A stretch of 64,000 nucleotides of DNA from a virus, in the IMG/VR virus record IMGVR_UViG_3300045391_006247; one strand, 5' to 3'. This document shows, one piece after another, positions 9,390-47,147 of this stretch. The position numbers and the translations under genes were made by a program. The notes beneath the pieces are model-generated. The model was not told where the DNA came from, did no database searches, and saw only the letters and a program-made list of their open reading frames with translations. The first letter of the stretch is position 1. Each line of letters starts with the position of its first letter.

Positions 9390-9626
9390 TTACTGATCTA
9401 ATCCCAGCCAATCGCGATCGCTTTGTTCTACTGATTCGACTTCAATAGAAACGAAAGAATTAATTCGAGTTAAAAGAAATCCAACAAATGCTTGATCTGT
9501 CAAACCTGCCGGACGCAAAGAGGCAACAAGTTCCTTGAACGATTCATCCCCTTCAACGCTGAACGTATCCGCTGCTGCCGCTATAGACCCAATCCGATCG
9601 CTCATTCTGTAAAACGCTATTTTCAT
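9390..9626 (-). CDS. Small protein coupled to the kinase gene (candidate immunity/partner)
   Basis: 78 aa, ATGA overlap with 9623..11077. Confidence 0.7.
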   Translation of the reverse strand: MKIAFYRMSDRIGSIAAAADTFSVEGDESFKELVASLRPAGLTDQAFVGFLLTRINSFVSIEVESVEQSDRDWLGLDQ

Positions 9627-11077
9627 TTGAATCTTGCCTGCAATAAACTACGTTGTTCAGCCGTTAGTCCACCAAAAAAGTCTTGAAGTGAAGTGTCTTT
9701 TTTGGGTGGTTCCGGCTCATGCATAATGTCCCCTAATCTCACCCTGTTCTGAGATTTGCTGAGTTGTTCAATGCGATCGATTCTGGCTTCCAACCCCGAA
9801 GAATCTATGCCGGAAGCTTTTGCTGCACTCAATATCTCAGCTTTTGAGTTCAGGATTGACTGAACATCCTCATTGTTAAGCTCAAGATCTCTAACTTTTT
9901 GGTTTGAAGCCTTCCGAGGATTGGAGGTGTCGTAACCAAACTTGTCTCGAACCAACGTGTTGACAGCTATATCAAGCTTGTCTTTTGGTGTGCCCAAGTT
10001 TTTCTGAGTTACTTCATGAAAAGCGAAGCCATGATCAAACAAAACAGGACTGCCACTTCCATCGACACTAATGTTTGCAGCATGTCGATCTGTATTACCA
10101 ATGATGTAGTCAAAAGCTATTACCTTCAAAGCATCCCGATCGCCGATCTTTTTAATTGCTTTAAGGTTTCCAATATTAGAAACCTCGTCTTTTTCCAAAA
10201 ACGGCATCACAACTGCTGTCTTTTTCTTGACAGTCACCTTTTCGATCGGAACGGTGATGCCATCCAACCCCATTCGTTTAGCGATCTCATAAGCAAGAGT
10301 CTCAATCTTTGCTTCTTTTAAGGGTGTCTGCTTCACGAAATAATCTTTGCCGTCAATACTCGTTTTGGAAATTAAACCCAAATCACCGGCGCCCGATTGA
10401 ACTTTTAATTTTTCAAAAGTTGTTTTGTCAAATTGATCTTGAGACGGGAACTTAACGGCTCTCGACTTTGAAACTGTTTTGACTTGACTCTTTTCGGGTG
10501 TAGGCTTAACTTTTGGACTGCTTGGCTCAGCTTTGTGTGATTCAACAATAGCTTTCACAACCTCGGATTGCTGCGGTGTTGGCTTGTATCGACAGTTCAA
10601 GCTCCCACCCTGGCATTTTTTGCCGCACAGCATATTACCGGGTTTGCAGGTTGGTGTTTTCCTAGTTTTAGTTGTGGTAGATGCAAACTCGATCGCCTCC
10701 ACCCAGTCTCTGTCGTCGGCTTCATTAAACTCTGACATGTTGGGATTCACGGATTGAACAGGCATCAGCTTGTAATCCCAAGCTTCGGGGGACATCGTGA
10801 ATTGATAAAACTGAGATTTGGCAAGACTCAGCTTTTGCTCTGCTTTCCCTTTGATCGTGCTAGTAACAGTGTCGATCGTCAAGTCGAAGACACGTTGAAT
10901 CACACCCCCCACTTCTTCATCAAGAAGCGATCGCACTCTCTCTAAAACCTGCGGACTGCTAACGGTCGTCTCGGAAAACACAACAAGTGTTAACTTTCCC
11001 TCTTTAATTGATTGAAACAATCGCCCCAACTCAGCAAAAGCTTCAATTCTACTCGCCATCATATTTCTAACCCCCAA
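9623..11077 (-). CDS. Cargo-family paralog 3: shared N-terminal module plus PI3/4-kinase/HipA-like kinase domain
   Basis: YFVK, E.LAYEIAKRMGL, FDYIIGNTDRHAAN and LFDHG kinase motifs; N-terminus near-identical to 24796..26442; likely start is ATG at 11062 or 11059. Confidence 0.85.
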   Translation of the reverse strand: MGVRNMMASRIEAFAELGRLFQSIKEGKLTLVVFSETTVSSPQVLERVRSLLDEEVGGVIQRVFDLTIDTVTSTIKGKAEQKLSLAKSQFYQFTMSPEAWDYKLMPVQSVNPNMSEFNEADDRDWVEAIEFASTTTKTRKTPTCKPGNMLCGKKCQGGSLNCRYKPTPQQSEVVKAIVESHKAEPSSPKVKPTPEKSQVKTVSKSRAVKFPSQDQFDKTTFEKLKVQSGAGDLGLISKTSIDGKDYFVKQTPLKEAKIETLAYEIAKRMGLDGITVPIEKVTVKKKTAVVMPFLEKDEVSNIGNLKAIKKIGDRDALKVIAFDYIIGNTDRHAANISVDGSGSPVLFDHGFAFHEVTQKNLGTPKDKLDIAVNTLVRDKFGYDTSNPRKASNQKVRDLELNNEDVQSILNSKAEILSAAKASGIDSSGLEARIDRIEQLSKSQNRVRLGDIMHEPEPPKKDTSLQDFFGGLTAEQRSLLQARFK

Positions 11078-21312: not shown

Positions 21313-22305
21313 TTAGTCAACAGCGGTCTGAATCAGATATCCAGAGTTAATCAGTCCACCTGACACCCCGGTCAAAACGGGTTGACGGTGCAGTTTAGCG
21401 CCAAAGATCCACGCATCAGCGTTGTCATCGTGATATTTCGGCTTAGCCATTGGATGACCCTGCATCACATAGGTGTATCCAGTCGCAGGGGCATAGCGAT
21501 TGATCTGCTGCGTCGTCTGATAGGTCAAGCGATTAGAACCCAAAGCCGCGGGGTTGACGTAAGACATGATGATGTCTTTACCCCAAACATCGGTGGGCGT
21601 GCCCGTGATGTCATCCGCGATCGCCATCCCCACCACAACCTTTTGAAATCCATAAATCTGAGCCAACATCTCAGGGGTGATGGATTCAGAAGAAGTGTAT
21701 TTCAGCTTGTCGCGAATCTCTGGATTCTCCTGAAGTCCAGGAAGAACAGCGGCAGGAATCTCCATCACGTTGGGGTAAACCCCGATCGCAGCTCTAACCG
21801 CTTCTTTGCCTGCACGAATAACGGCAGAAGGGGTAGATGCTGCGTTGTTGAATCGGGAAGTGCCCGACAATGCGATCTTGTTGTTTGAGGCGTAGTTTGA
21901 GGCGTTCCGCAGAAGTGCGGCTTGCTCTACTTCAAGGTTGAGTGTTAGTCCACTCATGCAAGCATCCATCGCGTATTGCGACCAGTTAATACCAATCTGC
22001 CCGGCTTCTGAAATCTGCTCATCAGGGAGGGCGTGTTCCAAAGCATCCAGAATCAAGTTAAACGCAGTGTTGCTTGTATAGCCTGTCTGAATCCGTTTCG
22101 TCGCAGCACCGGGCGATCGCCGTGAGTTATACGTCTGAAAACATGCGCGATCGAACTCAATAATTCTGCCGCCGTAGGTGACAACCTCAGCAAAGGGAAG
22201 TAGGTTCATCCCCACTAGCTCAAGCTGTTTGAAGCCTTGAGCCATCGTTGTCAGAATGGGATCAATTACTCGCGTTTCTTTTAGTGATCTTCCAGTTCCA
22301 ACCAT
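21313..22305 (-). CDS. Major capsid protein
   Basis: 330 aa, RVIDPILTTMAQGF N-terminus, position after protease and decoration genes. Confidence 0.85.
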   Translation of the reverse strand: MVGTGRSLKETRVIDPILTTMAQGFKQLELVGMNLLPFAEVVTYGGRIIEFDRACFQTYNSRRSPGAATKRIQTGYTSNTAFNLILDALEHALPDEQISEAGQIGINWSQYAMDACMSGLTLNLEVEQAALLRNASNYASNNKIALSGTSRFNNAASTPSAVIRAGKEAVRAAIGVYPNVMEIPAAVLPGLQENPEIRDKLKYTSSESITPEMLAQIYGFQKVVVGMAIADDITGTPTDVWGKDIIMSYVNPAALGSNRLTYQTTQQINRYAPATGYTYVMQGHPMAKPKYHDDNADAWIFGAKLHRQPVLTGVSGGLINSGYLIQTAVD

Positions 22306-22665: not shown

Positions 22666-24021
22666 TTAGTACACTCCTCTAGTAACAGCCGCGATCGCTT
22701 CGCTGAAATCGCAATTTTGCGCCTTTTGGTATTCCTGAGCCTTGCGAAAAGTCTTGGCAGATTCCGGATCTACGGAATAACCGGGCGGCAAAGAAATTCC
22801 GGCAACCTCTGAAAAGTCAGTTGGCGCATCTTCGGGGTTGATCGGTAGGCGTCGATCAGTCCACAAAGGTTTTCTGTTTGCCAACTTTGCCTCATATTTA
22901 GCGCGAGGGGTAAGCTGCCCCTCTTCGCCGTAGTCTGCGGTCGTGGTGTTATCCAAGGACAAGATGAATCGAATTTCGTCATCCTTCTCAACCAAATCAA
23001 TCTTGTGATCTCTGACCAACGTTTCACAAAACGCAGAAACGCGATCGGTTTCACGTTGCAGCTGAACATCTTTGTTCTGCTGAAGCAGGAATTGCACGCT
23101 TGCTTTTAGTTGCTCGTTTTCAGCTTTCAGTTCGCTGTATTGAGCTGTTGACACTTCGTCTGTCACAGGGGTTGTATCCTCTTGCTCTTGATAATCGGGC
23201 ATAGACTTTTGCTCCAGTTGGTCAATTCGTTGGGCTAGCATGGCAACCATGTCAGGAGTTACGTCCGGTTGCCAAGGTTGAGACGCGATCGCATTCAATT
23301 GATCGAGGACGAATGAGGGGTAAAGCTTGTCGGCTTCTTCAACGCCTTTTTCCTCGATTAAGCGATCGCGACTACGGCTATAAAAATCGCGGAATAAAGA
23401 AGCCAGTTGCGGTGAATCACCCCCAAAGCTGGCAGCAGTAGCGCTAACTGATTGCAATGCGGCGTAAAGTTTCGCCCCTAGCTTTGCCTGCTCGATCGTT
23501 TCTTCGTCAGCATCGAGGGCAAAATCAACAGTCCCCTCTTGCTCTTCGGCGTAGCAGGGGAATTCTGCCAGCGGTTCAGTGAAGGCGAGGTTCATCCCCT
23601 TGACTGCGGGAGGGTCAACCCCTAATCCAGAAATGTGGCGCAGTGCCAACTTGCCAGGATAGGGATTGTGGGGGGAACCAGGGAGATAGAAACTAGACGA
23701 CAATCCGAGAATGTTGCCGTTCTTAACCCACTCCTGGAATTGGGGCGATATCTTCTTAAAGCCTGCCAACAACCGATCGCCCACCCGTTTCAGCTTGTCG
23801 GGATAGCCGTAAGCCAGTTGAGACTTGTGCAAATCTGCATCAGAATATCCCGCAGTCGAGTGGGCGGGGTAACTGACAATTAGGGGAGCTTTGAAGTGAT
23901 CGGGATTGTACGTACTTACAGCCTGATCTAGCTCGTCTGTCGCGTAATTACGGGATATTCCATTAGAAGAAGTCCTCGCTCCTCCAACGAAACACTCAAG
24001 CCATTTGAGGTCTTCTGGCAC
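22666..24021 (-). CDS. Mu gpI-like prohead protease/scaffold
   Basis: APLIVS..H, LAYG, SSSFY, LRHISGLGVDPPAVKGM motifs plus acidic coiled-coil scaffold tail. Confidence 0.85.
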   Translation of the reverse strand: MPEDLKWLECFVGGARTSSNGISRNYATDELDQAVSTYNPDHFKAPLIVSYPAHSTAGYSDADLHKSQLAYGYPDKLKRVGDRLLAGFKKISPQFQEWVKNGNILGLSSSFYLPGSPHNPYPGKLALRHISGLGVDPPAVKGMNLAFTEPLAEFPCYAEEQEGTVDFALDADEETIEQAKLGAKLYAALQSVSATAASFGGDSPQLASLFRDFYSRSRDRLIEEKGVEEADKLYPSFVLDQLNAIASQPWQPDVTPDMVAMLAQRIDQLEQKSMPDYQEQEDTTPVTDEVSTAQYSELKAENEQLKASVQFLLQQNKDVQLQRETDRVSAFCETLVRDHKIDLVEKDDEIRFILSLDNTTTADYGEEGQLTPRAKYEAKLANRKPLWTDRRLPINPEDAPTDFSEVAGISLPPGYSVDPESAKTFRKAQEYQKAQNCDFSEAIAAVTRGVY

Positions 24022-24124: not shown

Positions 24125-24370
24125 TTGACAGATATGCAATCATCGCTCGCACTTCAGATTACAGAGTCAGACCCATACAAAAGACAGGGTGCGATCGTTG
24201 AGATGGCAAGAATAGCAACAAGAAAAAGCCGCAAAGATTTAGCGACTGAACTTTCCGTAACTCCGGAAACAGTTCGATTGTGGGAGAAGGGCGATCGCAC
24301 CATTAGTGGAGTGATGCTGGGCAGGATTGCGATCGCGCTTGGGCAGGATGTGTCGTTGTTTTTGAGTTAA
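24125..24370 (+). CDS. XRE-family HTH regulator (inverted insert in head module)
   Basis: SRKDLATELSVTPETVRLWEKGDRTI HTH. Confidence 0.8.
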   Translation: MTDMQSSLALQITESDPYKRQGAIVEMARIATRKSRKDLATELSVTPETVRLWEKGDRTISGVMLGRIAIALGQDVSLFLS

Positions 24371-24795: not shown

Positions 24796-26442
24796 TTACA
24801 CCCCCAAGAACTCTTCGTTAGCTAAATCAGCAAAATCCAAAGCTTCAAACGAATACCACCATTCGTCTGAAATTTCCGAGAAGTTGAGTTCTTTTTTAAG
24901 CTTGTTGTAAGCGTTATTTATTCTCTCAAATTCCTGAGAAGAACCACCTACGTCTGGATGCGCCTGCAAAGACGCTTTACGGTAAGCAGTTTTAATTTGC
25001 GCTGGGGTAGCGTCCTTGGAAACGCCAAGAACATCGCGAGATGCCGAGGGATGCAAAGCACCTTGCAAATGTCTTTTGATTAGCTCACGTTGACGGTTTT
25101 CAGTTGCAGCAGGTACTTCGCGATCGGGGGGTGGGGCATACTCTGCTTTAAATCCCAAGACTGATTCAAGCTGCTCTTGAATCGTTTTTTGATCTCCTTT
25201 TGCAATTCGAGTCTGGATTTTTTTGGCTGTCGCTTCTTGTTTTGCTTGATCCGCGTCGAATTCTTCTTCTACCCTCTTCCGTAGTTCGTCTTGCGATAAT
25301 TTCAGCCGATCGGTAAGCCGTTTAGCCGTAGCTTGAGCAGACTCTTTTTCGGTTTCTTGCTGCTTGAGCTGCTTTTCTAATTTTGCTTTGACAGTTGGCT
25401 TTGTCTTGGGGTTCGCAATTTTAGCTTTCGTAGCCTCGATCGTGGCGTCGGTTATAAACGCATACCGCTGCCAATCGCCGTAGTCAATTCCATCCGCATT
25501 TTTCTTGACGTTGTCTTCGTGGAGTTCCTTTGCAACTTGATTCAAGTAGGCATTCTTGTCTCCCATTGCACGCCTCACCTCGTCTGGGGCGTCCTCCCAA
25601 TATTGGGACCCAGAAGGTTTGTATCGCCTCTCCAACTTTGAGCGCAATGTCAACCCTTCGGCACTGGTGTTATAGGCGAGCTGATCTTTAATCCAACCGT
25701 CGATATCAGCGTTACTCGGGTTGTCAGAAGCGTACTTTTGATCGATTTTTTCTTGCTCTGACTTTGGTGTGGACGATTTAGATTCTGAATCAGACGATTT
25801 TGATTCGGTTTTCGTCAACTTGCCAGCAATAGGAGAGATCGACCCACCTTTCGTCGTCGGAGTGTCAGAAGTTGCCTCACTAGGACTTGTAGTAGTTTTC
25901 TTGGCTTTAGTCTTAGCCTTAGTTGCAACAGTCTCAACAGCTTGCGATTGCTCATGGCTCGGAGCGTAGCGGCAATTTTTCTTTCCGTCCTGGCATTTCC
26001 CTCCGCACTGTGTGTTACCCGGCTTGCAGTTGAGTTTTTTGGATGCCCTAGCCGATTTAGACTTAACCGCTGTCGCTGCAAACTCGATCGCCCCCGCCCA
26101 GTCCTCGTCGTTGTTCTCGTCAAACTCTGCCATTTCAGGATTGACGGACTGAGCAGGGATGAGTTTGTAATCCCAAGCCGATGGCGACATTGAGAACTGG
26201 TAAAACTGAGATTTTGCAAGACTTAGTTTTTGCTCCGCTTTACCCCTAAATGTGTTTGTGTTAGAGTCGATCGTCAAGTCGAAGACACGTTGAATCACAC
26301 CCCCCACTTCTTCATCAAGAAGCGATCGCACCTCTCCTAAAATTTCAGGGTCAGTAACGGGGATTGATTCAGAAAAGTTTTGACTCTCTTGATAAAGTTT
26401 TCCTAGTTCTACAAAAGCTTTAGCGCGATCGGTTAACAGCAT
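24796..26442 (-). CDS. Cargo-family paralog 2: shared N-terminal module plus C-terminal DnaJ J-domain
   Basis: RDVLGVSKDATPAQIKTAYRKASLQAHPDVGGSSQEFERINNAYNKL with intact HPD. Confidence 0.85.
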   Translation of the reverse strand: MLLTDRAKAFVELGKLYQESQNFSESIPVTDPEILGEVRSLLDEEVGGVIQRVFDLTIDSNTNTFRGKAEQKLSLAKSQFYQFSMSPSAWDYKLIPAQSVNPEMAEFDENNDEDWAGAIEFAATAVKSKSARASKKLNCKPGNTQCGGKCQDGKKNCRYAPSHEQSQAVETVATKAKTKAKKTTTSPSEATSDTPTTKGGSISPIAGKLTKTESKSSDSESKSSTPKSEQEKIDQKYASDNPSNADIDGWIKDQLAYNTSAEGLTLRSKLERRYKPSGSQYWEDAPDEVRRAMGDKNAYLNQVAKELHEDNVKKNADGIDYGDWQRYAFITDATIEATKAKIANPKTKPTVKAKLEKQLKQQETEKESAQATAKRLTDRLKLSQDELRKRVEEEFDADQAKQEATAKKIQTRIAKGDQKTIQEQLESVLGFKAEYAPPPDREVPAATENRQRELIKRHLQGALHPSASRDVLGVSKDATPAQIKTAYRKASLQAHPDVGGSSQEFERINNAYNKLKKELNFSEISDEWWYSFEALDFADLANEEFLGV

Positions 26443-26500
26443 ACTTATTTCTTTTGTTTCGTATGGATTGCAATTGCGTTTTGAAAGAATTTAGACACCA

Positions 26501-26689
26501 TTACATCCCAAATAATCTTTGCTCAACCATATAAAAACCTTCGATCGCCTGTCTTGCTTCGTTGGCTTCCTGTTCGGGCAATCCGGACAAACCTCTAGCA
26601 ATATTTCTTACCTCATCCCTTGAGTTTTCTAAGTTCACGAGTGTTAGCTGTTGAGTTAACTCTTTGACTCTGTCTGCTGTGTTTGTCAT
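26501..26689 (-). CDS. Small protein coupled to the metalloprotease gene (candidate immunity/partner)
   Basis: 62 aa, ATGA overlap with 26686..28083. Confidence 0.7.
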   Translation of the reverse strand: MTNTADRVKELTQQLTLVNLENSRDEVRNIARGLSGLPEQEANEARQAIEGFYMVEQRLFGM

Positions 26690-28083
26690 TTCTTTTTACT
26701 TTGGGCTGCAAGTTCTAGTGTGTCTTCAATGAATTTATGCCCGATCGGATCAAAAGCCTTGTAGGATTCCCCGTCAAGCACCCACGCGGCAAAATGCTCG
26801 GCAAACCACTCATCGTTGTTGGTATTAGCGTAACTTGTCAGGGTTTTGGTATCGTCTGGGTATATAACCATGCGAGCCGAATCAGCCTTAAACAGTACTT
26901 GATGTCCCACTTCGTGTAGATATGTCGACAAAGTCGCAGTATCCGGATCAACAGCGATCGATGATATTGAATGCCTCGGCAATTCAAATTCATGGGCGGT
27001 AATTGCACTCTGAATGGTCGCGCCCAAGTCTCGAGCATCAGGCGAAAACCTTCCCGACTTGCCTTCTCGAATATTAACAAACACATGATTTGCGATTTGT
27101 ATTGTATGCCCATTTGCCCCATCAAGCGGAGTAACAGAAGGTGAGATCGCCTTAAAAAAATCAGGATGTTCTCTGTTGATTTTTTCTCTCACCCTTCCGC
27201 CCGCAATAACAACACCTTTCGACTCCTGCCAGTAACGATATCGATCGTCGTTAATGAAGTCGTAATTTTTGACTCCCTTTGCGATAGTCTTGGCTTGAGC
27301 AAGATAACCAGGAGCTTCCTCATCCCAAAACGCAGCCTGGACCTCGTGCTTGTTAACAAACGATCGGAACTTCTCAACCCTTTCCGCCGCTCCAGATGTG
27401 GGGATGCTGTCGAGAGCATTTTCGAGGGCAGCCTGAGTAACTCTTGATTTAATTCCGATCGTATGACCATCAAACATTTTTGCCCCAGACTTAGGGGTAA
27501 CACCCGCATCTTGTGCAGCTTTCGGAGTACTTGTTTTAGGTGCGATCGAGTTTGTTTCTGACGGTTTTAATGTGCCCGCCTTTATCGCTGCGGCTTTGGC
27601 TTTTCTGACAACTGACTGAGCCTTCTTCTTTTGCTCTGGACTCATGCCGTGATAGCAGTTGAGCGTCTCTTTTTGGCACTTTCCCCCGCATTGCATGTTG
27701 CCGGGTCGGCAGTTGAGCTTCTTGCCACTTCTAGCAACAAACTCAACAAGATCACCCCAGTCCTCGTCGGACTCCCCAAATCCAACAGGAGAACTTACAA
27801 CCTTGTACACAATGCGATCAGGGGTAATCGTGAAGCCATAAGTCCGAATTCTAGACAAAGAAACCCTTTGATCAGCCTTCCCTTTTAGGGTGTCGGTGTC
27901 AGGGTCAAGGGTTAACTCAAACACTCGCTCAAGGTCGCCAACTTCATCCTCTAACAGCGATCGCACATCCCCCGCCACATCTGAATCGAAAATAGCGATC
28001 GGTTCAGCAAAACTGCCAACCAAAGAAGCAAGCCAAACTTTTCCCAGTTCAGCAAAAGCTTTGGCGCGATCGGTTAACAACAC
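26686..28083 (-). CDS. Cargo-family paralog 1: shared N-terminal module plus zincin metallopeptidase (lethal-factor/MPTase-like)
   Basis: YLHEVGH (HExxH) followed by TSYANTNNDEWFAEHF third-ligand motif. Confidence 0.85.
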   Translation of the reverse strand: MLLTDRAKAFAELGKVWLASLVGSFAEPIAIFDSDVAGDVRSLLEDEVGDLERVFELTLDPDTDTLKGKADQRVSLSRIRTYGFTITPDRIVYKVVSSPVGFGESDEDWGDLVEFVARSGKKLNCRPGNMQCGGKCQKETLNCYHGMSPEQKKKAQSVVRKAKAAAIKAGTLKPSETNSIAPKTSTPKAAQDAGVTPKSGAKMFDGHTIGIKSRVTQAALENALDSIPTSGAAERVEKFRSFVNKHEVQAAFWDEEAPGYLAQAKTIAKGVKNYDFINDDRYRYWQESKGVVIAGGRVREKINREHPDFFKAISPSVTPLDGANGHTIQIANHVFVNIREGKSGRFSPDARDLGATIQSAITAHEFELPRHSISSIAVDPDTATLSTYLHEVGHQVLFKADSARMVIYPDDTKTLTSYANTNNDEWFAEHFAAWVLDGESYKAFDPIGHKFIEDTLELAAQSKKK

Positions 28084-29733
28084 TCATTTCCCTCCCTTTT
28101 TAGACGGCGCAGGACCAAAGCCTCGCTTATTGGGGTTATAGCCGGAATGCTCTCCGTTCGGACCCGATCGCACCCAGTCACCCCTCTCTGCGATTTTGCG
28201 CTCTTCCTCGGTCAACGCCCGCACTTTTACAAGCTTTGTTCCGCCGCGTTTCAGTTTAGCTCTAGCCTCCTCAACCGATCGCGCAATGATACCCGTCCTC
28301 CGATGTTCGAAAAAATAAAGTTTCCAGTCCGGCTCGCTCAGTGTAGTGACGTCTTGGGGCGTGTCCGTGGGAGCGGGTTCCGCAGCGGGAAGGGTGAACG
28401 CATCTCCGTAAACTTCTGAAATATATTCCTGAGTTACGGAAAGTCCGATCGTGTTTATCAACACAACATCAGTTTGAACGCGTTGATTCCGCAGCTCTTC
28501 CTCGGCTTGCAATTGCTCAATCTTGCGTCTTTCTGCAAAAGTCTCACGGCGGATCTTAGGGGGGTTGGCTTTGGGATAATTGCGATCGGCTATCCATTGC
28601 CACAGTTGATCTGCAAGCTGCTCATCCAGGGAATTGCAGTCTGAATCGACTACATTCTCGTTGCGGTTCTCTGCCTGTTGAGTTGCAGCTGCATAAGACC
28701 CTGTACCCTTTTCAGAGTACGAACCTTCACCCCAAATCGCTCTTGTAATCTCAAGCCCTGAGGTTTCATACAACCATTTTAAGATTTCGTGTCCTCCTGA
28801 CTTGGAAGGTTCCAGAAAATTGATAGTGAAGCCTTCGCTCGTGAGTGCGTTGCCGTTGGGGGAGAATGCCCTCAACACTCGATCGAATGCGTTCAATACT
28901 TCCGCTTGGTCGGAGTCTTTCGTGTCCAGAGTATTAGGGTAAGTGCCATGCACAGGGGGAGAACCCAGCCGATCGGCTGTCAGTACTCCGCTCCTAAGGC
29001 ACTCTCGCCTAATCTCGTAGAACTTGCGAATCTGCGCCCCGAGTCCGTAGCCTTGGGGAAGTCCTTTGATAGAGCCAAAGGTGAAGGTGAAGAACCTGTT
29101 TTTAGGGCATCGTTCCCCATTGATGGGCGATCGTTTGGTCAGGAGTCGCAGTTCATAACCATTGACTTTTGCGATTTCGCTGAGATCTAAATCTTCGTCG
29201 CTGCAAACGGGGATTGTTTTGTTTTCGGGTTCAAAGTTCCGAAATACGAAACGTCGTTGCGGAACGAATTCTAATTTAGGAACTACAACGGTTTGATTTT
29301 TGACCGACTCTTGTTCTTCTCCGTCAACGTCTTTCGTAACTACGTAAAAAGCTTGTTTTTCTTCAACTTCAGCCACCGCCATAACTGAAAAGCCGAATAT
29401 CAACCCGGAATACAAAAACGAATTGCAGACCTGCTCGTAGGGGATGAGGTTATGGTCAATGATTCGTCTGGCAGTGTCTGCTGCGTCCTGGTCTATCTTT
29501 CGCCGTGTTGCTGCGTCAATTAGAACCGATCGCCCTAACAACGCCCCAACTCGCTCGCTCAGCTTGCCCCTGACTTGCGGGTCGAGCAACATCTCTTCGT
29601 ATTTGGTAAAGTCGCCACCGAAGCGATCGTACAGGTACGAGTCTTCGGGGACCGGTGCGTCGTTAAAGATGGCTGCGATCGCTTCTGGATCTGTTTGGGC
29701 AAGGCGAAGTCTAGCGTTAGTGTCTAGGGGCAT
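28084..29733 (-). CDS. Portal protein (Mu gp29/DUF935-like) with C-terminal extension
   Basis: YEEMLLDPQVRGKL..R, DRLGSPPVHGTYP, GSYAAA, DCNSLDEQLADQL patterns; follows terminase. Confidence 0.85.
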   Translation of the reverse strand: MPLDTNARLRLAQTDPEAIAAIFNDAPVPEDSYLYDRFGGDFTKYEEMLLDPQVRGKLSERVGALLGRSVLIDAATRRKIDQDAADTARRIIDHNLIPYEQVCNSFLYSGLIFGFSVMAVAEVEEKQAFYVVTKDVDGEEQESVKNQTVVVPKLEFVPQRRFVFRNFEPENKTIPVCSDEDLDLSEIAKVNGYELRLLTKRSPINGERCPKNRFFTFTFGSIKGLPQGYGLGAQIRKFYEIRRECLRSGVLTADRLGSPPVHGTYPNTLDTKDSDQAEVLNAFDRVLRAFSPNGNALTSEGFTINFLEPSKSGGHEILKWLYETSGLEITRAIWGEGSYSEKGTGSYAAATQQAENRNENVVDSDCNSLDEQLADQLWQWIADRNYPKANPPKIRRETFAERRKIEQLQAEEELRNQRVQTDVVLINTIGLSVTQEYISEVYGDAFTLPAAEPAPTDTPQDVTTLSEPDWKLYFFEHRRTGIIARSVEEARAKLKRGGTKLVKVRALTEEERKIAERGDWVRSGPNGEHSGYNPNKRGFGPAPSKKGGK

Positions 29734-29893: not shown

Positions 29894-31465
29894 CTACCAA
29901 GAGAGTCGGCTAGTCGGGTTGTTGACTGTTCCGGCAACGCTATATTTCTTCGGCTTCAGGGTGAGCGCAAATTCTAACCATGCAAACCCTGCTGCCCAAC
30001 AAGTAATAGTGTCGTCGTTCAGGTCGTCACTCTCGACGATCGCAGCTCGATTCAAGGCTGAGAAGTTTCGAGCCTCCTTGATACCAATCCAGTCGGATGG
30101 AAACACAACGTCTCCAGCCTCAACGTTTTGGGTAATGCGATCGGTGTTAACAATTTTGGACATTTGGGAGGTTCTTGTAATCTCAACGTGAAGTTGGGGC
30201 ATCTCCGCCGATATTTGCTCAGCAATGACCACCCCGCCGTTGTCTGCTTCTACTGCCAAGAAAACAGCGTTAAATCTTTTAATTAATTCCATTGACTTCG
30301 TTCTGCAATACAAAGGTTTTTTGTAGTTCTCTCTGTATTGAGCAACAAGCCTAAACGGAGCCTTTGTGATATCCCAAATCTGGCAGACCCAAAAGTTTTG
30401 CCCGCCGTAATTCGGGTCAATGCAGGAAAGGTAAGAATGTCCGGCTTCAGGGGTGGACATCCATTGCCCTGTTGCGCATTTGATAACCAGTTCTGGATCA
30501 AACAGGCTAGCGCCTTGCTTCGGCAACCCAAGATTGTGCTCTCTTTGGGCTTGAGCATCCGTCAGCTTCTTCTTTGTGCGCTGCTCCTCAACGTATTGAG
30601 GGTTTGAGCCATAAATGGGATGGGCTTTGTGGGAAATAATAACCTTGACCCATCCGCCCTTATCCTCCCAAGCGCAGAATCCAGGGATTGCAGGCAATGG
30701 GACTTTGGTTTGATTGAAAAATCCACCAGAACGAGCGACCGCCAGTAGTTCTTCTAAGTCGATCGCATCAGGATTATCTGCCAGCCCCCTCTCAAAAAAC
30801 CAACTATCAAGCCCTTCTTTTGGGATGGTGGAGACAATAAACGTCCGAGCGTCGGCTCCAACCATTTCTTGGGATGGGGTAGAAGCTGCATACATCTCGT
30901 CAATGATGGGGACAAAACCCGCCTCATCAAACATTAAATCCCAAACAGACTCTAGTCCGCGAGTTGCGTTTGTGGTGGATGGGCGAAAGTTCATCTCACC
31001 CCCGTCTTTGGGCTTACGAACACTGATCGAGTCAACTTCCCATTCAAAATCAGGAATTTGGGAGGGCATTCGCTCTATTCGTTTGGAAACCTTATGAGCA
31101 TCCTTTTCGGTAATGCTGAACACTGCGCCAGCATAGGCAGGGTTGAGCTTTGCTCTAAACAGCATCCAACAGATCAACAATTCAGTTAAACCCAACTGCC
31201 GATCTTTAACGAGCCACAGTCCTGGATAAACAGCAATTAGACGAGCGATCGCTTCTTGGTAGTCAAATAGTGGGTCAAAGCGGATTAAGCGCGTTCCTGA
31301 GCGAATAACACACTGGTTAGCAAAAGCCTTGAACTCTTCGATCGTGGGGATTGGGTTGACTGTTGGGGTGTTTTTTGGTAATCCAGCCGTTTGCGCGATC
31401 GCGTTTAACGACTGCCTCTTGAGTTCTCGATCGACAAAGCTAATTGCCTGATTTCTCTTCGCCAT
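29894..31465 (-). CDS. Terminase large subunit
   Basis: KDRQLGLT Walker A-like, LMFDEAG Walker B, CIDPN and terminal DD nuclease residues. Confidence 0.9.
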   Translation of the reverse strand: MAKRNQAISFVDRELKRQSLNAIAQTAGLPKNTPTVNPIPTIEEFKAFANQCVIRSGTRLIRFDPLFDYQEAIARLIAVYPGLWLVKDRQLGLTELLICWMLFRAKLNPAYAGAVFSITEKDAHKVSKRIERMPSQIPDFEWEVDSISVRKPKDGGEMNFRPSTTNATRGLESVWDLMFDEAGFVPIIDEMYAASTPSQEMVGADARTFIVSTIPKEGLDSWFFERGLADNPDAIDLEELLAVARSGGFFNQTKVPLPAIPGFCAWEDKGGWVKVIISHKAHPIYGSNPQYVEEQRTKKKLTDAQAQREHNLGLPKQGASLFDPELVIKCATGQWMSTPEAGHSYLSCIDPNYGGQNFWVCQIWDITKAPFRLVAQYRENYKKPLYCRTKSMELIKRFNAVFLAVEADNGGVVIAEQISAEMPQLHVEITRTSQMSKIVNTDRITQNVEAGDVVFPSDWIGIKEARNFSALNRAAIVESDDLNDDTITCWAAGFAWLEFALTLKPKKYSVAGTVNNPTSRLSW

Positions 31466-31934
31466 TCAGCTGTTCCATTACGGCTTCTAGTCCAATCAAT
31501 TCAGCCATACCCTGCAATGCATTCTCGGTGAGGTCATCTGCCGCTTTAATCAGCTGGGAAATGTTATTAGGGGCGATCGCTTCTTCAGGGAGATCTCGCA
31601 ATCTATTTTGAACCTTGTTAAGAATCTCGTTGCCCAAGTTCAACTTAATGGCGTAAGACTCCATCCGCAGTTCACGGTATTTTTTTAAGTCCTCGTAAAA
31701 GGAGCCAATCTCGCCCAGCCGAATCTCACTTGCTTTTTGACGGTGAGCCTCGATCGCCTGCTGCTTCCGCCGATCGACCTCAGCCAAGAATGACTCATTC
31801 TGCATCCATCGGCTAACTGTCCTCCTTGAGACACCGATCGCCTCTGCTGTGTCAGGAACGGACAAACCCGTGGACAAAAAACCAGTTGCCCTTAGCTGTA
31901 TTTCACTTAAATCAAAGGTTCTAGATGCTGGCAC
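31440..31934 (-). CDS. Terminase small subunit
   Basis: N-terminal HTH (TAEAIGVSRRTVSRW) directly upstream of and overlapping the large subunit. Confidence 0.75.
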   Translation of the reverse strand: MPASRTFDLSEIQLRATGFLSTGLSVPDTAEAIGVSRRTVSRWMQNESFLAEVDRRKQQAIEAHRQKASEIRLGEIGSFYEDLKKYRELRMESYAIKLNLGNEILNKVQNRLRDLPEEAIAPNNISQLIKAADDLTENALQGMAELIGLEAVMEQLNGEEKSGN

Positions 31935-42292: not shown

Positions 42293-42808
42293 GTGGACAA
42301 AATCTGGCTTCCAATTTTTGGATATGAAAGTCTTTACGAAGTAAGTAATCACGGAGAGGTAAGAAGCTTGAGGTCTAACAAGCTTCTTAAACCTTCTTTG
42401 GCAAAAGGCTATTTCAAGGTTGTGCTATCAGCCGAGAATATTCCAAAACCATTTACTGTACATCGGCTTGTAGCATTGGCTTTTATTCCTAACTTCGAAA
42501 ACCTCCCACAAGTTAATCATCGAGATGGAGTTAAGACAAACAATTCCGCATCAAATCTTGAATGGGTTACACCAAAGGCAAATATTTCTCACGCAATCGA
42601 ATCTAAATTGATTGATTTTTCTACGCGACGATTTTCTACTCAACATCGTCGCGTTGGTCAACGACGCAAAGGAAAGATATCTGACTGCCAAGTTCAAGAA
42701 ATTATTGAAAGGTTCAAAAATGGCGAATCCAAAAAATCGTTGGCTCGATTTTTTGGGGTTACACCTAAAGCGATCATCTACATTCTTAAGAGAGATCGCG
42801 TTATTTAA
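42293..42808 (+). CDS. NUMOD4-HNH homing endonuclease-like protein
   Basis: IWLPIFGYESLYEVSNHGEVRS (NUMOD4); VHRLVALAF...VNHRDGVKTNNSASNLEW (HNH); GTG start after GGAGG. Confidence 0.9.
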   Translation: MDKIWLPIFGYESLYEVSNHGEVRSLRSNKLLKPSLAKGYFKVVLSAENIPKPFTVHRLVALAFIPNFENLPQVNHRDGVKTNNSASNLEWVTPKANISHAIESKLIDFSTRRFSTQHRRVGQRRKGKISDCQVQEIIERFKNGESKKSLARFFGVTPKAIIYILKRDRVI

Positions 42809-42835
42809 ATTTATTCACCCCTTACGGAGAAAATC

Positions 42836-43072
42836 ATGCTGGCACTGCAAGAACGGACTGCTGCTGTGAAAGAGACGATCGCCCTTGCGATTGACGCTTA
42901 TCACGCAACTGTTAACGAGGCATCCAACGCCGAAGGCGGTAAGGTGAACTGGAATTTGCTTTATTCCGCGATCCCCACCCTTCGCAAGGAATTGTTGACA
43001 GTCCTACCCGAATCTGAAACCGATCGCATTTTGGATCGGTTGTACGAGGAGGAAGAAGCGGCAGGTTTGTAA
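42836..43072 (+). CDS. Hypothetical protein
   Basis: 78-aa ORF after GGAG. Confidence 0.65.
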   Translation: MLALQERTAAVKETIALAIDAYHATVNEASNAEGGKVNWNLLYSAIPTLRKELLTVLPESETDRILDRLYEEEEAAGL

Positions 43073-43150
43073 AGCGGTTGGGCGATCGGTTGGTCGCCTT
43101 TCCTGCAAGGGGTTGAATCAAAAAAAACTAAGTCAATTAAGGAGTTAAAC

Positions 43151-43300
43151 ATGAAAAAATACCAAGTGCGCTTAAAGTCAGATTTGTCAGTTGTGAAAGT
43201 TTACGAAGCAGAATCCCCTTTTGATGCTGCCGAACTGTTTGCTCAAGATATGGGGCTTTCGATCAGTTTTTCTGATGTTGACGTCAAGAAAATTAAATAG
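43151..43300 (+). CDS. Small hypothetical protein (not in ORF track)
   Basis: 49-aa ORF MKKYQVRLKSD... after AAGGAG. Confidence 0.6.
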   Translation: MKKYQVRLKSDLSVVKVYEAESPFDAAELFAQDMGLSISFSDVDVKKIK

Positions 43301-43422
43301 ACACTCAAGGGCGCTAACCCCGCCCGATCGCTTAATCTCGCCTGCGCAGCACCGATCGCAGCCAGTCCCAAGCCTGGAACCCAAGAGAGAGGGAGCACAA
43401 CACATTTTCAAAGGGAAAAATC

Positions 43423-43797
43423 ATGCAAGCCATTCTAAATTTCGCGATCGAGTTCATCGTTTTCGGTTCCGCCGCACTATTCGCCATCGCCTTCATTTCA
43501 GGCTACAGCCGCTGGCAACCCAAAACGGCAGCAATCCCCACCCTGTCAGCAGAAGACAAGCCGATCGCGCAGCAGTTATCGGAGGCGTGGAAGGATGCCA
43601 CAGAACCGATCGCGATTGAACTTGGGGTCGTGCCATTCACCCGCAAGGCTCCCGACCTGAAAAGGCTAAAGATTCGCGAATTAAAAGCGATCGCTCAACG
43701 GGTGAAGCTGGCAAAATACAGCAACAACCCGACCTCAGTTTTGGTGGAGCGGTTGTCTGAGTTGCCTGCTTGGACGTTGCGGGAAGCGATCGGGTAG
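43423..43797 (+). CDS. Membrane-anchored protein with C-terminal Rho-N/SAP-like motif
   Basis: N-terminal TM; DLKRLKIRELKAIAQRVKLAKYS motif. Confidence 0.65.
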   Translation: MQAILNFAIEFIVFGSAALFAIAFISGYSRWQPKTAAIPTLSAEDKPIAQQLSEAWKDATEPIAIELGVVPFTRKAPDLKRLKIRELKAIAQRVKLAKYSNNPTSVLVERLSELPAWTLREAIG

Positions 43798-43828
43798 GGT
43801 TTGAGCTAACAAAACAAAGGAGAGAACT

Positions 43829-44026
43829 ATGGATAGCACAGAACTGATCAGACAGGGTGTTCTTAATGTTGAGCTTGACAAGAAGATGATTCTAGATCCC
43901 AACGGCAACAACCCTGTTTGCAAGCCGGGGTTGGGAACGGGAGTTTGTGAAAGATGTGGCAAGCCTGTCAGTCTTGGCAAGGCGTGTTCTTCGGTTCCCT
44001 TAGATCAAAGATGGCGGATGGGTTGA
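43829..44026 (+). CDS. Small Cys-containing protein
   Basis: 65 aa, CERCG motif, GGAG leader. Confidence 0.55.
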   Translation: MDSTELIRQGVLNVELDKKMILDPNGNNPVCKPGLGTGVCERCGKPVSLGKACSSVPLDQRWRMG

Positions 44027-44060
44027 TCAGATCGCCTTACAAAATTAATGTTTGATTATT

Positions 44061-44102
44061 GCGTAATTACGCACTATTATTAAATTAATAACGTAATTAC
44101 GC
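44061..44102. promoter_or_regulatory. Paired operator (includes the perfect palindrome)
   Basis: GCGTAATTACGC at 44061 and ACGTAATTACGC at 44091. Confidence 0.75.
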
Positions 44103-44258
44103 AATTATGTCTCAATTAATCTTTTCGATACTCCTAAGCGCGATTGCCCTTTCCCTGCCGTTTGTGGCGTTAGGTGCGATCGGTTGTAGGGTTAGGGATT
44201 GTCCTCCGGGGCAGTTTGATGGTTCTTGTAGATGTGTTGATAAATAGGAGGAAGGACG

Positions 44259-44579
44259 ATGAATCAACCACCCGATCACGTTATGGCTCGATCGCGATCC
44301 ATCTGTCCCAGTGATGCGGATCGCCCTAATGGAGAGCAATACACACCAAGCAATGGAACAGAAGGCGAAATCTTTATGTCCCGATGGTGCGAAGCCTGCC
44401 ATCACGATCGAAACGAAGACTGCGAAATTCTCATGCAAGCGCTCTGCCACGAAGAACCAACAGAATGGCAATACTGGAACGGCAAGCCTGTCTGTACCAG
44501 TTTTGAAGCCAAGCGTGAACCTGCCGAGCGCAAACATGTTGATCCGATCGCCCCTGGTCAAATAGCTTTAGATCTCTAA
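44259..44579 (+). CDS. Small Cys-rich hypothetical protein
   Basis: YTPSNGTEGEIFMSRWCEAC...C...C. Confidence 0.7.
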   Translation: MNQPPDHVMARSRSICPSDADRPNGEQYTPSNGTEGEIFMSRWCEACHHDRNEDCEILMQALCHEEPTEWQYWNGKPVCTSFEAKREPAERKHVDPIAPGQIALDL

Positions 44580-44595
44580 TCAACATTCCATTCCC

Positions 44596-44847
44596 ATGAA
44601 CGACACAACACAAGAAAAACCACAACGTTATTCAATATCCCGACTCAGCTACGCAGATGCGATCGCCCTAATTGAAGCCTTAAGCGCGATCGGAATTGAG
44701 TCAAACATCACGGCAGGGGGAGTGGCAATCTACCCTTTGTCAAGCCAAGTTGAAGCAATGCAGGCATGTTGCATGAAGTTTGGCGAGCGAGCTTTTGAGG
44801 GCACAACGATTCTCGAAGACAACGTTTTGTATCCGTGGAGTAATTAA
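44596..44847 (+). CDS. Hypothetical protein
   Basis: 83-aa ORF in operon. Confidence 0.6.
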   Translation: MNDTTQEKPQRYSISRLSYADAIALIEALSAIGIESNITAGGVAIYPLSSQVEAMQACCMKFGERAFEGTTILEDNVLYPWSN

Positions 44848-44851
44848 CCCC

Positions 44852-45022
44852 ATGAACCCCCGATCGATATTCCTCCACGAGATTGAAGACACGATCGCCC
44901 ATCCCCAAGATGCCGAGCAACTCACAGCAGCGATCGCGGCTCATCGGGCTTATTTAGCTTGGGATAGAGAGCAGACCACGAAGAAATGGCGATCGTTTTG
45001 CAAGCAGTACAGAAAGGTTTAA
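44852..45022 (+). CDS. Hypothetical protein
   Basis: Start placed at ATG 44852 (MNPRSIF) within track ORF 44780..45022. Confidence 0.5.
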   Translation: MNPRSIFLHEIEDTIAHPQDAEQLTAAIAAHRAYLAWDREQTTKKWRSFCKQYRKV

Positions 45023-45135
45023 GCCATGCTCTACTTCTTCCACTATCGAATCATTAAAACAGGTGAAGAAGTCACCCAAATCTTCACCCGCAGTGAAGCA
45101 GAAAAGTTTTGGACAGCAAATAGGGAAAGAATTGA

Positions 45136-45420
45136 ATGGATAAAACAACACCAGCGATAAAGGAAATGCGCCCCATCCTAAGCGCGATCGGCATTAGTGC
45201 GACGATGATGGATTGGACAGCAACACAAGCGATCGAGGCTCTCTCCCTTGACTATCACACGGGCAATGCGGTCTATTTGCTATGGCATTGTGAGGGTGTG
45301 GATGATTTGAAGAGGGCACTGTGGCACCTCGATCGGATTGGGGGCGATCGATTTCATGTTTTTGCTAGGGGTCTAATTCGAGGAAAGATTGAGGAGGAGT
45401 TAGGGGTATGCCAAAAATGA
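45136..45420 (+). CDS. Hypothetical protein
   Basis: 94-aa ORF in operon. Confidence 0.6.
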   Translation: MDKTTPAIKEMRPILSAIGISATMMDWTATQAIEALSLDYHTGNAVYLLWHCEGVDDLKRALWHLDRIGGDRFHVFARGLIRGKIEEELGVCQK

Positions 45421-45605
45421 CCATCACTGAACTGGCAGAAAAAGCGATCGCGACTGGACTGATTATTCGGTACTGGCAAGACCAAGTAGACGGTGATCAT
45501 ATTATTAGATTTGAAGATGGGGAGAATTGGTCTTTCAGTAATGACAGGGAATTGGCGATCGCGCTTGAGACGGTGATCAAGGTTAAGTCGTTGGTTGAGT
45601 TTTAA
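45408..45605 (+). CDS. Hypothetical protein
   Basis: 65-aa ORF after GAGGAG. Confidence 0.6.
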   Translation: MPKMTITELAEKAIATGLIIRYWQDQVDGDHIIRFEDGENWSFSNDRELAIALETVIKVKSLVEF

Positions 45606-45607
45606 TT

Positions 45608-45841
45608 ATGGAAATAGACCCCCAATACTGCGCCGAAATTTTAGCCGAGGAAACGGGATATCCCTGCTACGTCGAAGCAGTATCCGATCGCGCAATTAGT
45701 TTCAGGCTCAACCTTCCAAACGATCGGGTCTTGCATCACACTATTGAAGTTAAATTGCTTGAATCTTTTGTTGGTGGGGTTGAAGGTTTTCTTAGGTCGG
45801 CAGCTTGGCGGATTTTAGAACAAGACCTTAAGCTTGGATAA
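45608..45841 (+). CDS. Hypothetical protein
   Basis: 77-aa ORF 2 nt after the previous stop. Confidence 0.6.
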   Translation: MEIDPQYCAEILAEETGYPCYVEAVSDRAISFRLNLPNDRVLHHTIEVKLLESFVGGVEGFLRSAAWRILEQDLKLG

Positions 45842-46017
45842 CCGATCGCGTATATCCGGATATACTTTGAAAATTGCTAGGTCAAATGCAGAGCCGTGCT
45901 GGGGTAGTACGGCTTTTTTGTTCGTGTTTGCGCGATCGGGTGTAGAATAATGGCGTAACAGCGGAAGTGTTCGAGGTTTCCGCCATTACTGACCACCAAT
46001 CTAGGATAAATAGACCA

Positions 46018-46761
46018 ATGGCTAGCACTATTAAAGCGCATATTACGGATGTTTCTGTTGGACATCTCAGCGTTAAAGGCTTAATGTCTGACGATGGCAA
46101 TTTCTATATTGCTATCCCTCAAATTGCCGAGCGATTTAACGTTCCTCAGAAAAACGCTTCAAGAGACTTCAAAGCCTTGATGGGTGAGGGTTTTACGTTC
46201 CTCAAGATGTCTGTTCATGGAACAAAAGTGACGGTTAACGCCATGCCTCTTGAGGTCTTTGAGTTATTGGTTGCAAAGCTCGATCGCTCAGGCAATCAAT
46301 CAGCACAAGATTTCAGGGATGATCTTGTGGGATTATCACTTCGCCAGTTGTTCTCTGACGCATTTGGGGTGAAGTTTGAAGAGGAAGATCGGCAGCAATG
46401 GTTGAAGTTAAGGCAAGAGGTAAAACAGGTCAGACGATCGCTCACTGACGCCGTCAAAAACTACATCCAGAGCCACTCTGAGTTATCAGAGAACGCAATC
46501 AAGTTCATGTACTCCAATGCTAGCGACAAGGTGAACAAGGCTGTGTTTGGACGCATAGCGCGTCAACTAGTGAAAGACTTCCAGTGCAACAAAGATGACC
46601 TCAGAGATCAGTTCACTGCTGCCGAATTGCGCCATATACAGCAGGTAGAAGATCTGGCAATGCGTTTGGTCGATCAGCATGACATCGAGCCTGTAGCGGC
46701 TGTAGATGAGGCTAAGCGACGGTTAGAGATTCCAGTGAGCGATCGGAGAGTTGTCGCTTGA
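46018..46761 (+). CDS. Antirepressor-like DNA-binding protein (P22 Ant/P63C-like)
   Basis: VKGLMSDDGNFYIAIPQIAERF N-terminus; RRSLTDAVKNY...YSNASDKVNKAVFG C-terminal pattern. Confidence 0.6.
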   Translation: MASTIKAHITDVSVGHLSVKGLMSDDGNFYIAIPQIAERFNVPQKNASRDFKALMGEGFTFLKMSVHGTKVTVNAMPLEVFELLVAKLDRSGNQSAQDFRDDLVGLSLRQLFSDAFGVKFEEEDRQQWLKLRQEVKQVRRSLTDAVKNYIQSHSELSENAIKFMYSNASDKVNKAVFGRIARQLVKDFQCNKDDLRDQFTAAELRHIQQVEDLAMRLVDQHDIEPVAAVDEAKRRLEIPVSDRRVVA

Positions 46762-46794
46762 ATTAGTCGAAGTTCAAACACAAAGAGGTTAAAA

Positions 46795-47073
46795 ATGGAA
46801 GCTAGTCTTTTAAGAAAAATGCTGTCAAGCCTTGAAATAAGTCTATCAGGCGCAGTTGACGACAAAGCCAATGGTCAGAAAACACTGCGCTTCAATTATT
46901 TCTATCTAGGGTGGGATCAGGATGACTTAGAGTACCCAACTGTAACTGATGCTGAAAGCCTTCCCCTAGTGACCAAGAAAATGCAAATTGATGAAGCGAT
47001 CGCCTATTTGCAAGGTCAAAAAGACTTGCTGATGATGCTGGTAGTTTTGTCTACAAAAGCCAGCAAGGGATAG
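46795..47073 (+). CDS. Hypothetical protein
   Basis: 92-aa ORF after GAGG. Confidence 0.6.
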   Translation: MEASLLRKMLSSLEISLSGAVDDKANGQKTLRFNYFYLGWDQDDLEYPTVTDAESLPLVTKKMQIDEAIAYLQGQKDLLMMLVVLSTKASKG

Positions 47074-47094
47074 ACAGTCGATCGACCCAAGCCA

Positions 47095-47128
47095 AAGCCC
47101 CGCACTACTTAAAACAGTGCGGGGCTTT
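47095..47128. terminator. Bidirectional terminator
   Basis: AAAGCCCCGCACT-loop-AGTGCGGGGCTTT between convergent operons. Confidence 0.75.
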
Positions 47129-47147
47129 GTGCGTAATTCAAGCTCAA

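Follow-up and report, generated by a model that had tools for sequence, protein, structure and literature searches.

Head-packaged effectors decide the first minutes of phage infection. To our knowledge, few signals that load them are known: the capsid-targeting sequence of T4, MuF, portal fusions, and the Dar system of bacteriophage P1. The T4 capsid-targeting sequence is a peptide of ~10 residues that binds the scaffold core, and in T4, the prohead protease processes the internal proteins at sites of the form x-x-E. For the T4 internal proteins and Alt, and for the Dar proteins, an N-terminal signal loads enzymes or anti-defense proteins into the head, with DNA-coupled ejection. MuF polymorphic toxins and MuF-effector fusions (SPP1 gp7/Mu gp30; PMC5576092, PMC3482391) combine a constant head-associated N terminus, a linker, and a variable enzyme. 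Polyvalent proteins (PMC5512222) include lethal-factor-like MPTase zincin, ART-PolyVal, InPase, and ParB-like domains, occur in the context of virion genes, and are predicted to be injected with the DNA. Here we describe a family of proteins that resembles all of these systems, starting from three genes of the IMG/VR record IMGVR_UViG_3300045391_006247 that encode one shared N-terminal module followed by three different enzyme domains. The stretch of DNA analyzed (the window) covers 64 kb of this 69.8-kb record (CheckV completeness, 99%) and is nearly the entire genome of a probably virulent cyanophage with a Mu-type head module.

An earlier reading of the window sequence alone (the original prediction) had claimed that three open reading frames (ORFs) share an N-terminal module, and BLASTP comparisons of the full-length products bore this out (E values from 8e-28 to 2e-64). 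Paralogs 1 and 2 (P1 and P2) were 43% identical (E = 7e-43), P2 and paralog 3 (P3) 53% identical (E = 2e-64), and P1 and P3 35% identical (E = 8e-28). The three N termini align across ~150 to 170 amino acids (aa) with 57 invariant columns, and the motifs quoted in that prediction (AF[AV]ELG, VRSLL[DE][DE]EVG, an acidic F-x-E..DW, and C[KR]PGNxxCG[GK]KCQxxxxNC) are all present. Divergence after a Lys/Ser-rich linker, also claimed, was evident from the alignments, all of which stop at residue ~184 to 209, inside a basic linker in which Lys, Ser, Thr, and Pro abound (isoelectric point of 9.3 to 10.4); the module itself is acidic to neutral. P1, P2, and P3 all possess the hallmarks of the family, namely, an alpha/beta domain, the F-x-E/EFAA motifs, four cysteines spaced C-x6-C-x3-C-x6-C (the knuckle), and the basic linker. 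The knuckle cysteines are the sole cysteines of each whole protein. The genes and their parts are as follows.

26686-28083, minus strand: P1 (P0001, 465 aa), consisting of the module, a basic linker, and a putative lethal-factor-like zincin
27628-28083, minus strand: proposed carrier module of P1 (aa 1-152), delimited by alignments
27655-27711, minus strand: four-Cys knuckle of P1 (aa 125-143)
26689-27468, minus strand: putative zincin domain of P1 (aa ~206-465), from the ATLF match (E = 0.078), Atlas neighbors, and homology to P0064
26501-26689, minus strand: 62-aa ORF whose start overlaps the P1 stop, candidate cognate partner of the zincin
24796-26442, minus strand: P2 (P0002, 548 aa), consisting of the module, a long Lys/Ser/Glu-rich middle, a J-domain, and an acidic tail
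25939-26442, minus strand: proposed carrier module of P2
24889-25035, minus strand: J-domain of P2, with HPD motif (PF00226, E = 3.5e-12)
9623-11077 (probable ATG at 11062), minus strand: P3 (P0003), consisting of the module, a linker, and a PI3/4K-HipA-like kinase, in the tail-gene region
10562-11062, minus strand: proposed carrier module of P3
9845-10360, minus strand: PI3/4K-HipA-like kinase domain of P3
9390-9626, minus strand: 78-aa ORF overlapping the P3 stop, candidate partner of the kinase

P3 lies 14 kb from P1 and P2, amid large tail-region genes. Its start is most likely the ATG at 11062, matching a 479-aa database protein, rather than the TTG at 11077.

The module proteins form a real, well-defined family that is uncatalogued. 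The original prediction had not recognized the module as a named family, and no match was found in Pfam, PHROGs, or NCBIfam. A profile search against PDB sequences gave chance-level matches only (cystine-rich VEGF and LDL-receptor class A; E ≥ 0.5), Foldseek found nothing in the PDB at an E value of ≤0.001, and a shape search of the ESM Atlas reached a template modeling (TM) score of ≤0.38 at best. No description of the carrier domain was found in the libraries or literature searched. As a carrier, the domain is most likely new; the strategy of head-packaged polymorphic effectors is already known from MuF, portal fusions, polyvalent proteins, and the T4 capsid-targeting sequence. When 1.84 billion cluster representatives were searched with a profile of the module, 60 proteins emerged, of which 22 had E values of ≤1e-30, and the module was N-terminal in all but three or four. 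The cysteine spacing was invariant or nearly so among the 60 to 62 family members. The sole convincing structure matches, found in BFVD and AFDB, were uncharacterized proteins of Nodularia phages, PaV-LD, and CL131, together with two cyanobacterial-type AFDB entries.

An AlphaFold2 model of the module, based on 60 sequences, had a mean predicted local distance difference test score of 83.7. In order, it comprises a pair of helices and a four-stranded antiparallel sheet, then an acidic loop of low confidence, then small hairpins that carry the cysteines, and finally a short helix. The acidic loop conserves F-x-E (F in 52 and E/D in 51 of 60 sequences) and E-F-A-A, and the modeled knuckle may either bind a metal or form two disulfides. 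Exhaustive structure comparison (VIA-align) of residues 24 to 98 returned a homogeneous list of cystatin folds (Z scores of 6 to 7.7; root mean square deviation of ~2 to 2.6 Å over ~74 residues), in keeping with a modeled core in which one helix packs against the four-stranded sheet. At the nucleotide level, an exact 66-bp identity joins the P3 module (10871-10936) to the P2 module (26266-26331), with no flanking base matching; this tract begins at CGATCG, finishes at a full HIP1 site, and looks like the product of recent gene conversion.

With 86 copies of the HIP1 octamer GCGATCGC in the window vs 0.8 expected, the host is taken to be a cyanobacterium; CGATCG occurs 419 times vs 14 expected. 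A tyrosine integrase was looked for, and none was found. HIP1 is strongly enriched at nearly all related loci as well, and the family therefore looks restricted to cyanophages. Among isolates, it occurs in PaV-LD (a Planktothrix phage), CL131 (an Aphanizomenon phage; MG209611), and vB_NpeS-2AV2 (2AV2, a Nodularia phage). In profile searches, PaV-LD had four full module copies plus others consisting of the knuckle alone, 2AV2 had three or four module copies, and CL131 had module or knuckle copies in ORF044, ORF045, ORF047, and ORF048. The CL131 members align with the common strands and the four cysteines at ~18 to 24% identity to P2. Several paralogs occur per genome, with 3 in the window phage and up to 8 in PaV-LD. 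The 1,811-aa product of CL131 ORF048 (42705-48140) has one full module and three knuckle copies along its length; on its domain layout, it reads as a polyvalent-style string of carrier-plus-cargo units.

Close relatives of the window proteins are scarce. Neither the head region (megablast) nor the P1 module (tblastn) matched any of 50,697 phage records, but more divergent family members used as queries did reach Nodularia and Planktothrix phages. In collections, the pattern of the close subfamily turned up at just 1 viral locus, 2 genome loci, and 4 metagenome loci, the genome loci being 2 metagenome-assembled genome (MAG) contigs among the genomes of 185,579 species.

A single recognizable C-terminal domain stands behind the module in each of P1, P2, and P3. 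The J-domain and the PI3/4K-HipA-like kinase of the original prediction were both recovered. The former spans aa 470 to 518 of P2 with its HPD motif present (PF00226, E = 3.5e-12). P3 exceeded the cutoff of PF00454 (PI3_PI4_kinase; 28.6 vs 27.1 bits), matched HipA_2 below that model's own cutoff (E = 2.5e-4) and phrog_3162 (E = 2.5e-13), and has DRHAAN and FDHG motifs. The zincin assignment of P1 stood in part. The sequence HEVGH at aa 390 to 394, a downstream Glu in WFAEH, and Atlas feature and structure neighbors of the C terminus (ATLF and Peptidase_M90) support it, and the Pfam match to ATLF was weak and below threshold (E = 0.078). According to PMC5512222, the lethal-factor-like zincin is the commonest hub of polyvalent proteins and is thought to be a processor or an effector; the P1 zincin could likewise be either a host-directed effector or a processing peptidase. 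The module family shares with polyvalent proteins the characteristic kinds of domain, the virion-gene context, and the predicted injection with the DNA. P1, P2, and P3 differ from polyvalent proteins in having one effector per polypeptide behind its own carrier, rather than many domains within one very large protein; the distant CL131 ORF048, unlike these three, does have repeated units. The carrier module was not among the polyvalent-protein domains that a term search of that article found.

The claim that the effectors are interchangeable was substantiated by a survey of C termini, by a close relative, and by a mosaic protein. At least nine Pfam domain types were found behind the module, and the C termini of the family include ART/ADPrib_exo_Tox (Alt/VIP2-type), ART-PolyVal, PARP, DnaJ, DUF3626, GNAT, PI3_PI4/HipA_2, Pkinase, and Peptidase_M90/ATLF-like domains. 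Locus L001 is closely related to the window (capsid protein, portal, and protease 88%, 64%, and 60% identical, respectively) and has three module genes after the portal, the products of which match the window proteins only across the module (residues 1 to ~180). P0005, encoded on a cyanobacterial MAG contig, has a module 79% identical to that of P2 and 51% identical to that of P1, followed by a zincin 59% identical to that of P1. It is clearly, by these identities, a mosaic of a P2-type module and a P1-type zincin.

Small ORFs lie downstream of nearly all module genes and often overlap them. The 62-aa ORF downstream of P1 has a homolog of 62 aa (55% identity, E = 4e-22) after the zincin of P0005, with the same overlap. 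Likewise, 2AV2_18 resembles an 80-aa ORF of locus L004 (L4_80), and both follow DUF3626 effectors. No homolog was identified for the 78-aa ORF after P3. That the small ORFs belong to one chaperone family was ruled out, because they are mutually unrelated unless the effector is the same. Since they recur with the effector and not with the module, the exchanged cassette consists of the effector and its small partner, an organization like that of polymorphic toxin-immunity systems. For the 62-aa product, candidate roles toward the zincin are those of an inhibitor, an immunity factor, or a chaperone. As a separate observation, 2AV2_16 (L006, 12171-12338) is a 55-aa ORF between two cargo genes, and its Cys-rich tail (CGCHTC...C.C) is unlike the knuckle of the family.

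The genes for P1 and P2 lie between those for the portal and the prohead protease, as the original prediction had stated. The surrounding genes are listed below.

31440-31934, minus strand: small terminase (TerS)
29894-31465, minus strand: large terminase (TerL)
28084-29733, minus strand: Mu-type portal (PF06074 Portal_Mu, E = 5.4e-40; phrog_113)
24125-24370, plus strand: Xre-type helix-turn-helix (HTH) gene between the cargo genes and the protease (PF01381, E = 3.2e-7)
beside the HTH gene, plus strand: 107-aa ORF
22666-24021, minus strand: prohead protease/scaffold (phrog_976, E = 4.6e-54; 60% identical to the L001 ortholog)
between the prohead protease and the major capsid protein, minus strand: scaffold/cement protein
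21313-22305, minus strand: major capsid protein (phrog_1005, E = 2.1e-71; 88% identical to the L001 ortholog)

Related module genes usually sit right behind a Mu-type portal. A module gene directly follows the portal in the window, L001, L004, 2AV2, L010, and L021 and lies between the portal and the protease in L019. Linkage to head and virion genes was found at every family locus with context. An HTH gene on the opposite strand between cargo and protease is a conserved landmark (L001, L010, and L019). In P0060, the module is fused to the portal itself (Portal_Mu-module-X) with all family hallmarks, and P0032 has the order InPase-module-DUF3626. The portals of L001 (4267-6552), L010 (4867-7998), L019, and L021 include a fused InPase domain; the window portal is without InPase. 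Nothing in the window portal corresponds to residues ~464 to 577 of the L001 portal. The portal-fused InPase was interpreted as head packaged by Iyer et al. (PMC5512222). The strongest evidence for virion association of family members comes from CL131, in which the products of ORF044, ORF045, ORF047, and ORF048 were all among the 23 proteins detected using liquid chromatography-tandem mass spectrometry in CsCl-purified particles, with ORF048 ranking first (175 spectra) and ORF045 second (123 spectra) (PMC6293099, Table S5).

On this evidence, we consider it fairly probable that the N-terminal module is a carrier that brings an enzyme into the assembling virion, from which the enzyme is ejected with the DNA. 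Late in infection, the module proteins would be made alongside the head proteins, and the module would recruit them to the prohead or virion, with a probable location inside the head and close to the portal, where the basic linker may rest against DNA. The small partners, probably inhibitors or immunity proteins, would protect the producing cell from the enzymes. When the next host is infected, the preformed enzymes would come in along with the DNA and act ahead of all phage gene expression; the J-domain, for instance, would recruit DnaK. Recombination within the linker or close to it would redistribute units of an effector and a small gene among carriers. Of the capsid-loading tag proposed in the original prediction, the virion association is upheld by the distant CL131 members, and for the window phage we infer packaging, as well as the location in the head, ejection into the host, what the module binds, any cleavage, and what the small ORFs do. 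Packaging in the window phage is likely.

Several points weigh against this interpretation. Virion detection concerns the distantly related CL131 members, which sit between connector and tape-measure genes in a block of which nearly every product was detected; their detection therefore speaks for virion association, not for a location in the head, and is statistically weak evidence. P3, P0038, and P0032 are encoded amid tail or baseplate-like genes. The portal fusion could have arisen from mere gene adjacency, and the zincin may be a processing peptidase rather than cargo. A complex prediction for the portal and the P1 module scored 0.00, which is evidence neither way. The cystatin-like core of the model is to be taken as a description of the fold, below the specificity level of the tool, and gives no clue to kinship or function.

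The original prediction had the module replace MuF, and a takeover of the MuF role (head morphogenesis plus cargo tagging) in the MuF slot is the first alternative to be weighed. P1 does occupy the exact position of MuF in Mu-like head modules, and its zincin is of a kind also found on MuF proteins. The earlier observation that no MuF-like ORF is found in the window was corroborated: PF04233 had no match at an E value of ≤1 in six frames of the 69.8-kb, 99%-complete genome or in P1, P2, and P3, and tblastn with the MuF protein of the close relative L001 found nothing in the window genome. MuF was likewise undetectable in PaV-LD and 2AV2. However, L001, the capsid protein of which is 88% identical to that of the window phage, has a separate MuF gene (PF04233, E = 2.2e-9) besides its three module genes. 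MuF also accompanies the module elsewhere: in L004 (as in L001), its gene stands alone immediately behind the module genes, in L019 it is likewise a gene of its own, and in L010 and CL131 it is fused to the portal. The module profile and the L001 MuF aligned with an hhalign probability of 0.08, and no MuF proteins were among the fold matches of the module. In these genomes, MuF and the module co-occur or occur apart with no pattern of substitution. The replacement claim is therefore not supported as a rule, and we regard a takeover as unlikely.

What MuF proteins and module proteins do appear to share is cargo. The linker and zincin of P1 are homologous to the post-MuF part of P0064 (30% identity, E = 2e-36), the same zincin stands behind a MuF domain in P0064 and P0066, and a Photobacterium "minor head protein" is matched more weakly. 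The best Atlas structure neighbor of the zincin was a MuF family (TM score, 0.68). Because the P1-type zincin occurs on MuF proteins too, one cargo cassette rides on either carrier, and MuF and the module can be regarded as analogous carriers. Module genes resemble those of MuF effectors in lying just after the portal, in having small coupled downstream ORFs, and in overlapping kinds of cargo. The module differs from MuF in that its sequence, profile, and fold show no relation to PF04233, in having a Cys4 knuckle, and in being present as several paralogs per genome; it frequently coexists with MuF. In contrast to the phages of MuF toxins, the window phage is apparently virulent, and the module family is confined to cyanophages.

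A second alternative is that the module is an anchor holding proteins at the tail or the ejection apparatus (the tail lumen, the tape measure, or the baseplate), rather than in the capsid interior, in the manner of an ejectosome. The majority of copies are encoded immediately after the portal, and in one case module and portal are fused; moreover, the linkers have a basic character, and enzymes of these kinds are known among head-packaged cargo. We thus think this explanation improbable, even though the CL131 and PaV-LD genes lie between connector and tape-measure genes, P3 and P0038 adjoin large tail proteins of ~845 aa, and P0032 is near Phage_base_V-like and CIS_tube-like genes.

Third, the proteins might not be packaged at all, the module being a regulatory or inhibitory prodomain or an oligomerization domain of late host-takeover enzymes, perhaps removed by the prohead protease or the zincin. 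Many proteins with a cystatin-like fold are protease inhibitors or prodomains, F-x-E and EFAA are conserved in a disordered loop, and a similar motif is enriched in the protease/scaffold protein. The CL131 members in purified virions and the existence of a portal fusion speak against it, and late host-takeover enzymes make little sense unless carried to the next cell, so that we give this alternative little credence. Finally, the organization of toxin-like domains with coupled small ORFs, and the precedent of MuF toxins of temperate phages (PMC5576092), might suggest polymorphic toxins of the classical type, set free by lysis or by lysogens to kill competitors, with the small ORFs as immunity genes, but we find this highly implausible given that no integrase was found, that the close subfamily occurs in only two MAG contigs among the 185,579 species' genomes, that a secretion signal or receptor-binding part is lacking, and that J-domain, kinase, and ART activities need cytoplasmic substrates, with no evident route into a competitor.

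Returning to the packaged carrier, a more specific version, which we put forward tentatively and hold to be somewhat doubtful, is that the module serves cyanophages specifically as an autonomous and portable signal for encapsidation and ejection. Its alpha/beta domain would dock on the portal or scaffold, the prohead protease would clip at F-x-E/EFAA, and the knuckle and basic linker would stay with the enzyme. Motifs of the form [FY]-[ASTG]-[ED], which resemble those conserved in the module, occur 21 times in 2,940 aa of the portal, protease/scaffold, capsid, and module proteins vs 13 times in 7,858 aa of the other window proteins. They are thus ~4 times denser in head and module proteins and are rare in tail and replication proteins; the protease/scaffold has seven (two in its last 50 residues), the portal has three, and the capsid protein has one at residue 38. 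In a post hoc test, this is a hint only that such motifs may be prohead-protease cleavage or docking sites common to the cargo module. Compared with the T4 signal, the carrier is a folded domain of 150 aa with a knuckle, has no homology to it, and would be cleaved only hypothetically. If this version were true, a phage could inject three to nine different preformed enzymes, including a J-domain that recruits DnaK and a HipA-like kinase, and the tag would be usable for loading foreign proteins into capsids.

Were the broader carrier interpretation true, the family would represent a further carrier, one of different structure that is limited to phages of cyanobacteria, bloom-forming ones among them, and would provide a function for a large block of "hypothetical" cyanophage virion proteins. 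The injected activities indicated are unusual (J-domain, HipA/PI3K-like kinase, ARTs, and DUF3626). The presence of the same zincin on MuF or the module means that cargo cassettes move between unrelated carriers. Because the family is present in growable isolates (PaV-LD, Nodularia phages, and CL131), these ideas are directly testable.

The junction of the portal and P1 genes was also inspected. The GTG start of P1 directly follows the TGA stop of the portal, in frame (28080-28090, minus strand), and P1 has its own strong Shine-Dalgarno sequence, AAGGGAGGG. Read-through of the stop would yield a portal-module-zincin fusion, comparable to the natural fusion P0060. Conserved read-through was ruled out, however, as by their coordinates L001, L010, and L021 lack the in-frame TGA junction; the arrangement in the window is therefore probably incidental.

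Some features of related loci concern their origin and gene content. L001, L002, and L013 are located on contig JACQXV010000132.1 of GCA_016208715.1, from groundwater, which was binned as "Candidatus Woesearchaeota archaeon." HIP1 occurs there 40 times vs 0.3 expected; this is a cyanophage contig that was probably misbinned. In L021 (54-2879), QueC, a TGT/DUF6884 protein, and a radical-SAM gene are encoded beside the terminase, a gene content that suggests 7-deazaguanine DNA modification. Stand-alone response-regulator receiver genes were found near structural genes in L009 (8395-8766), L010 (477-848), and L020 (12300-12656).

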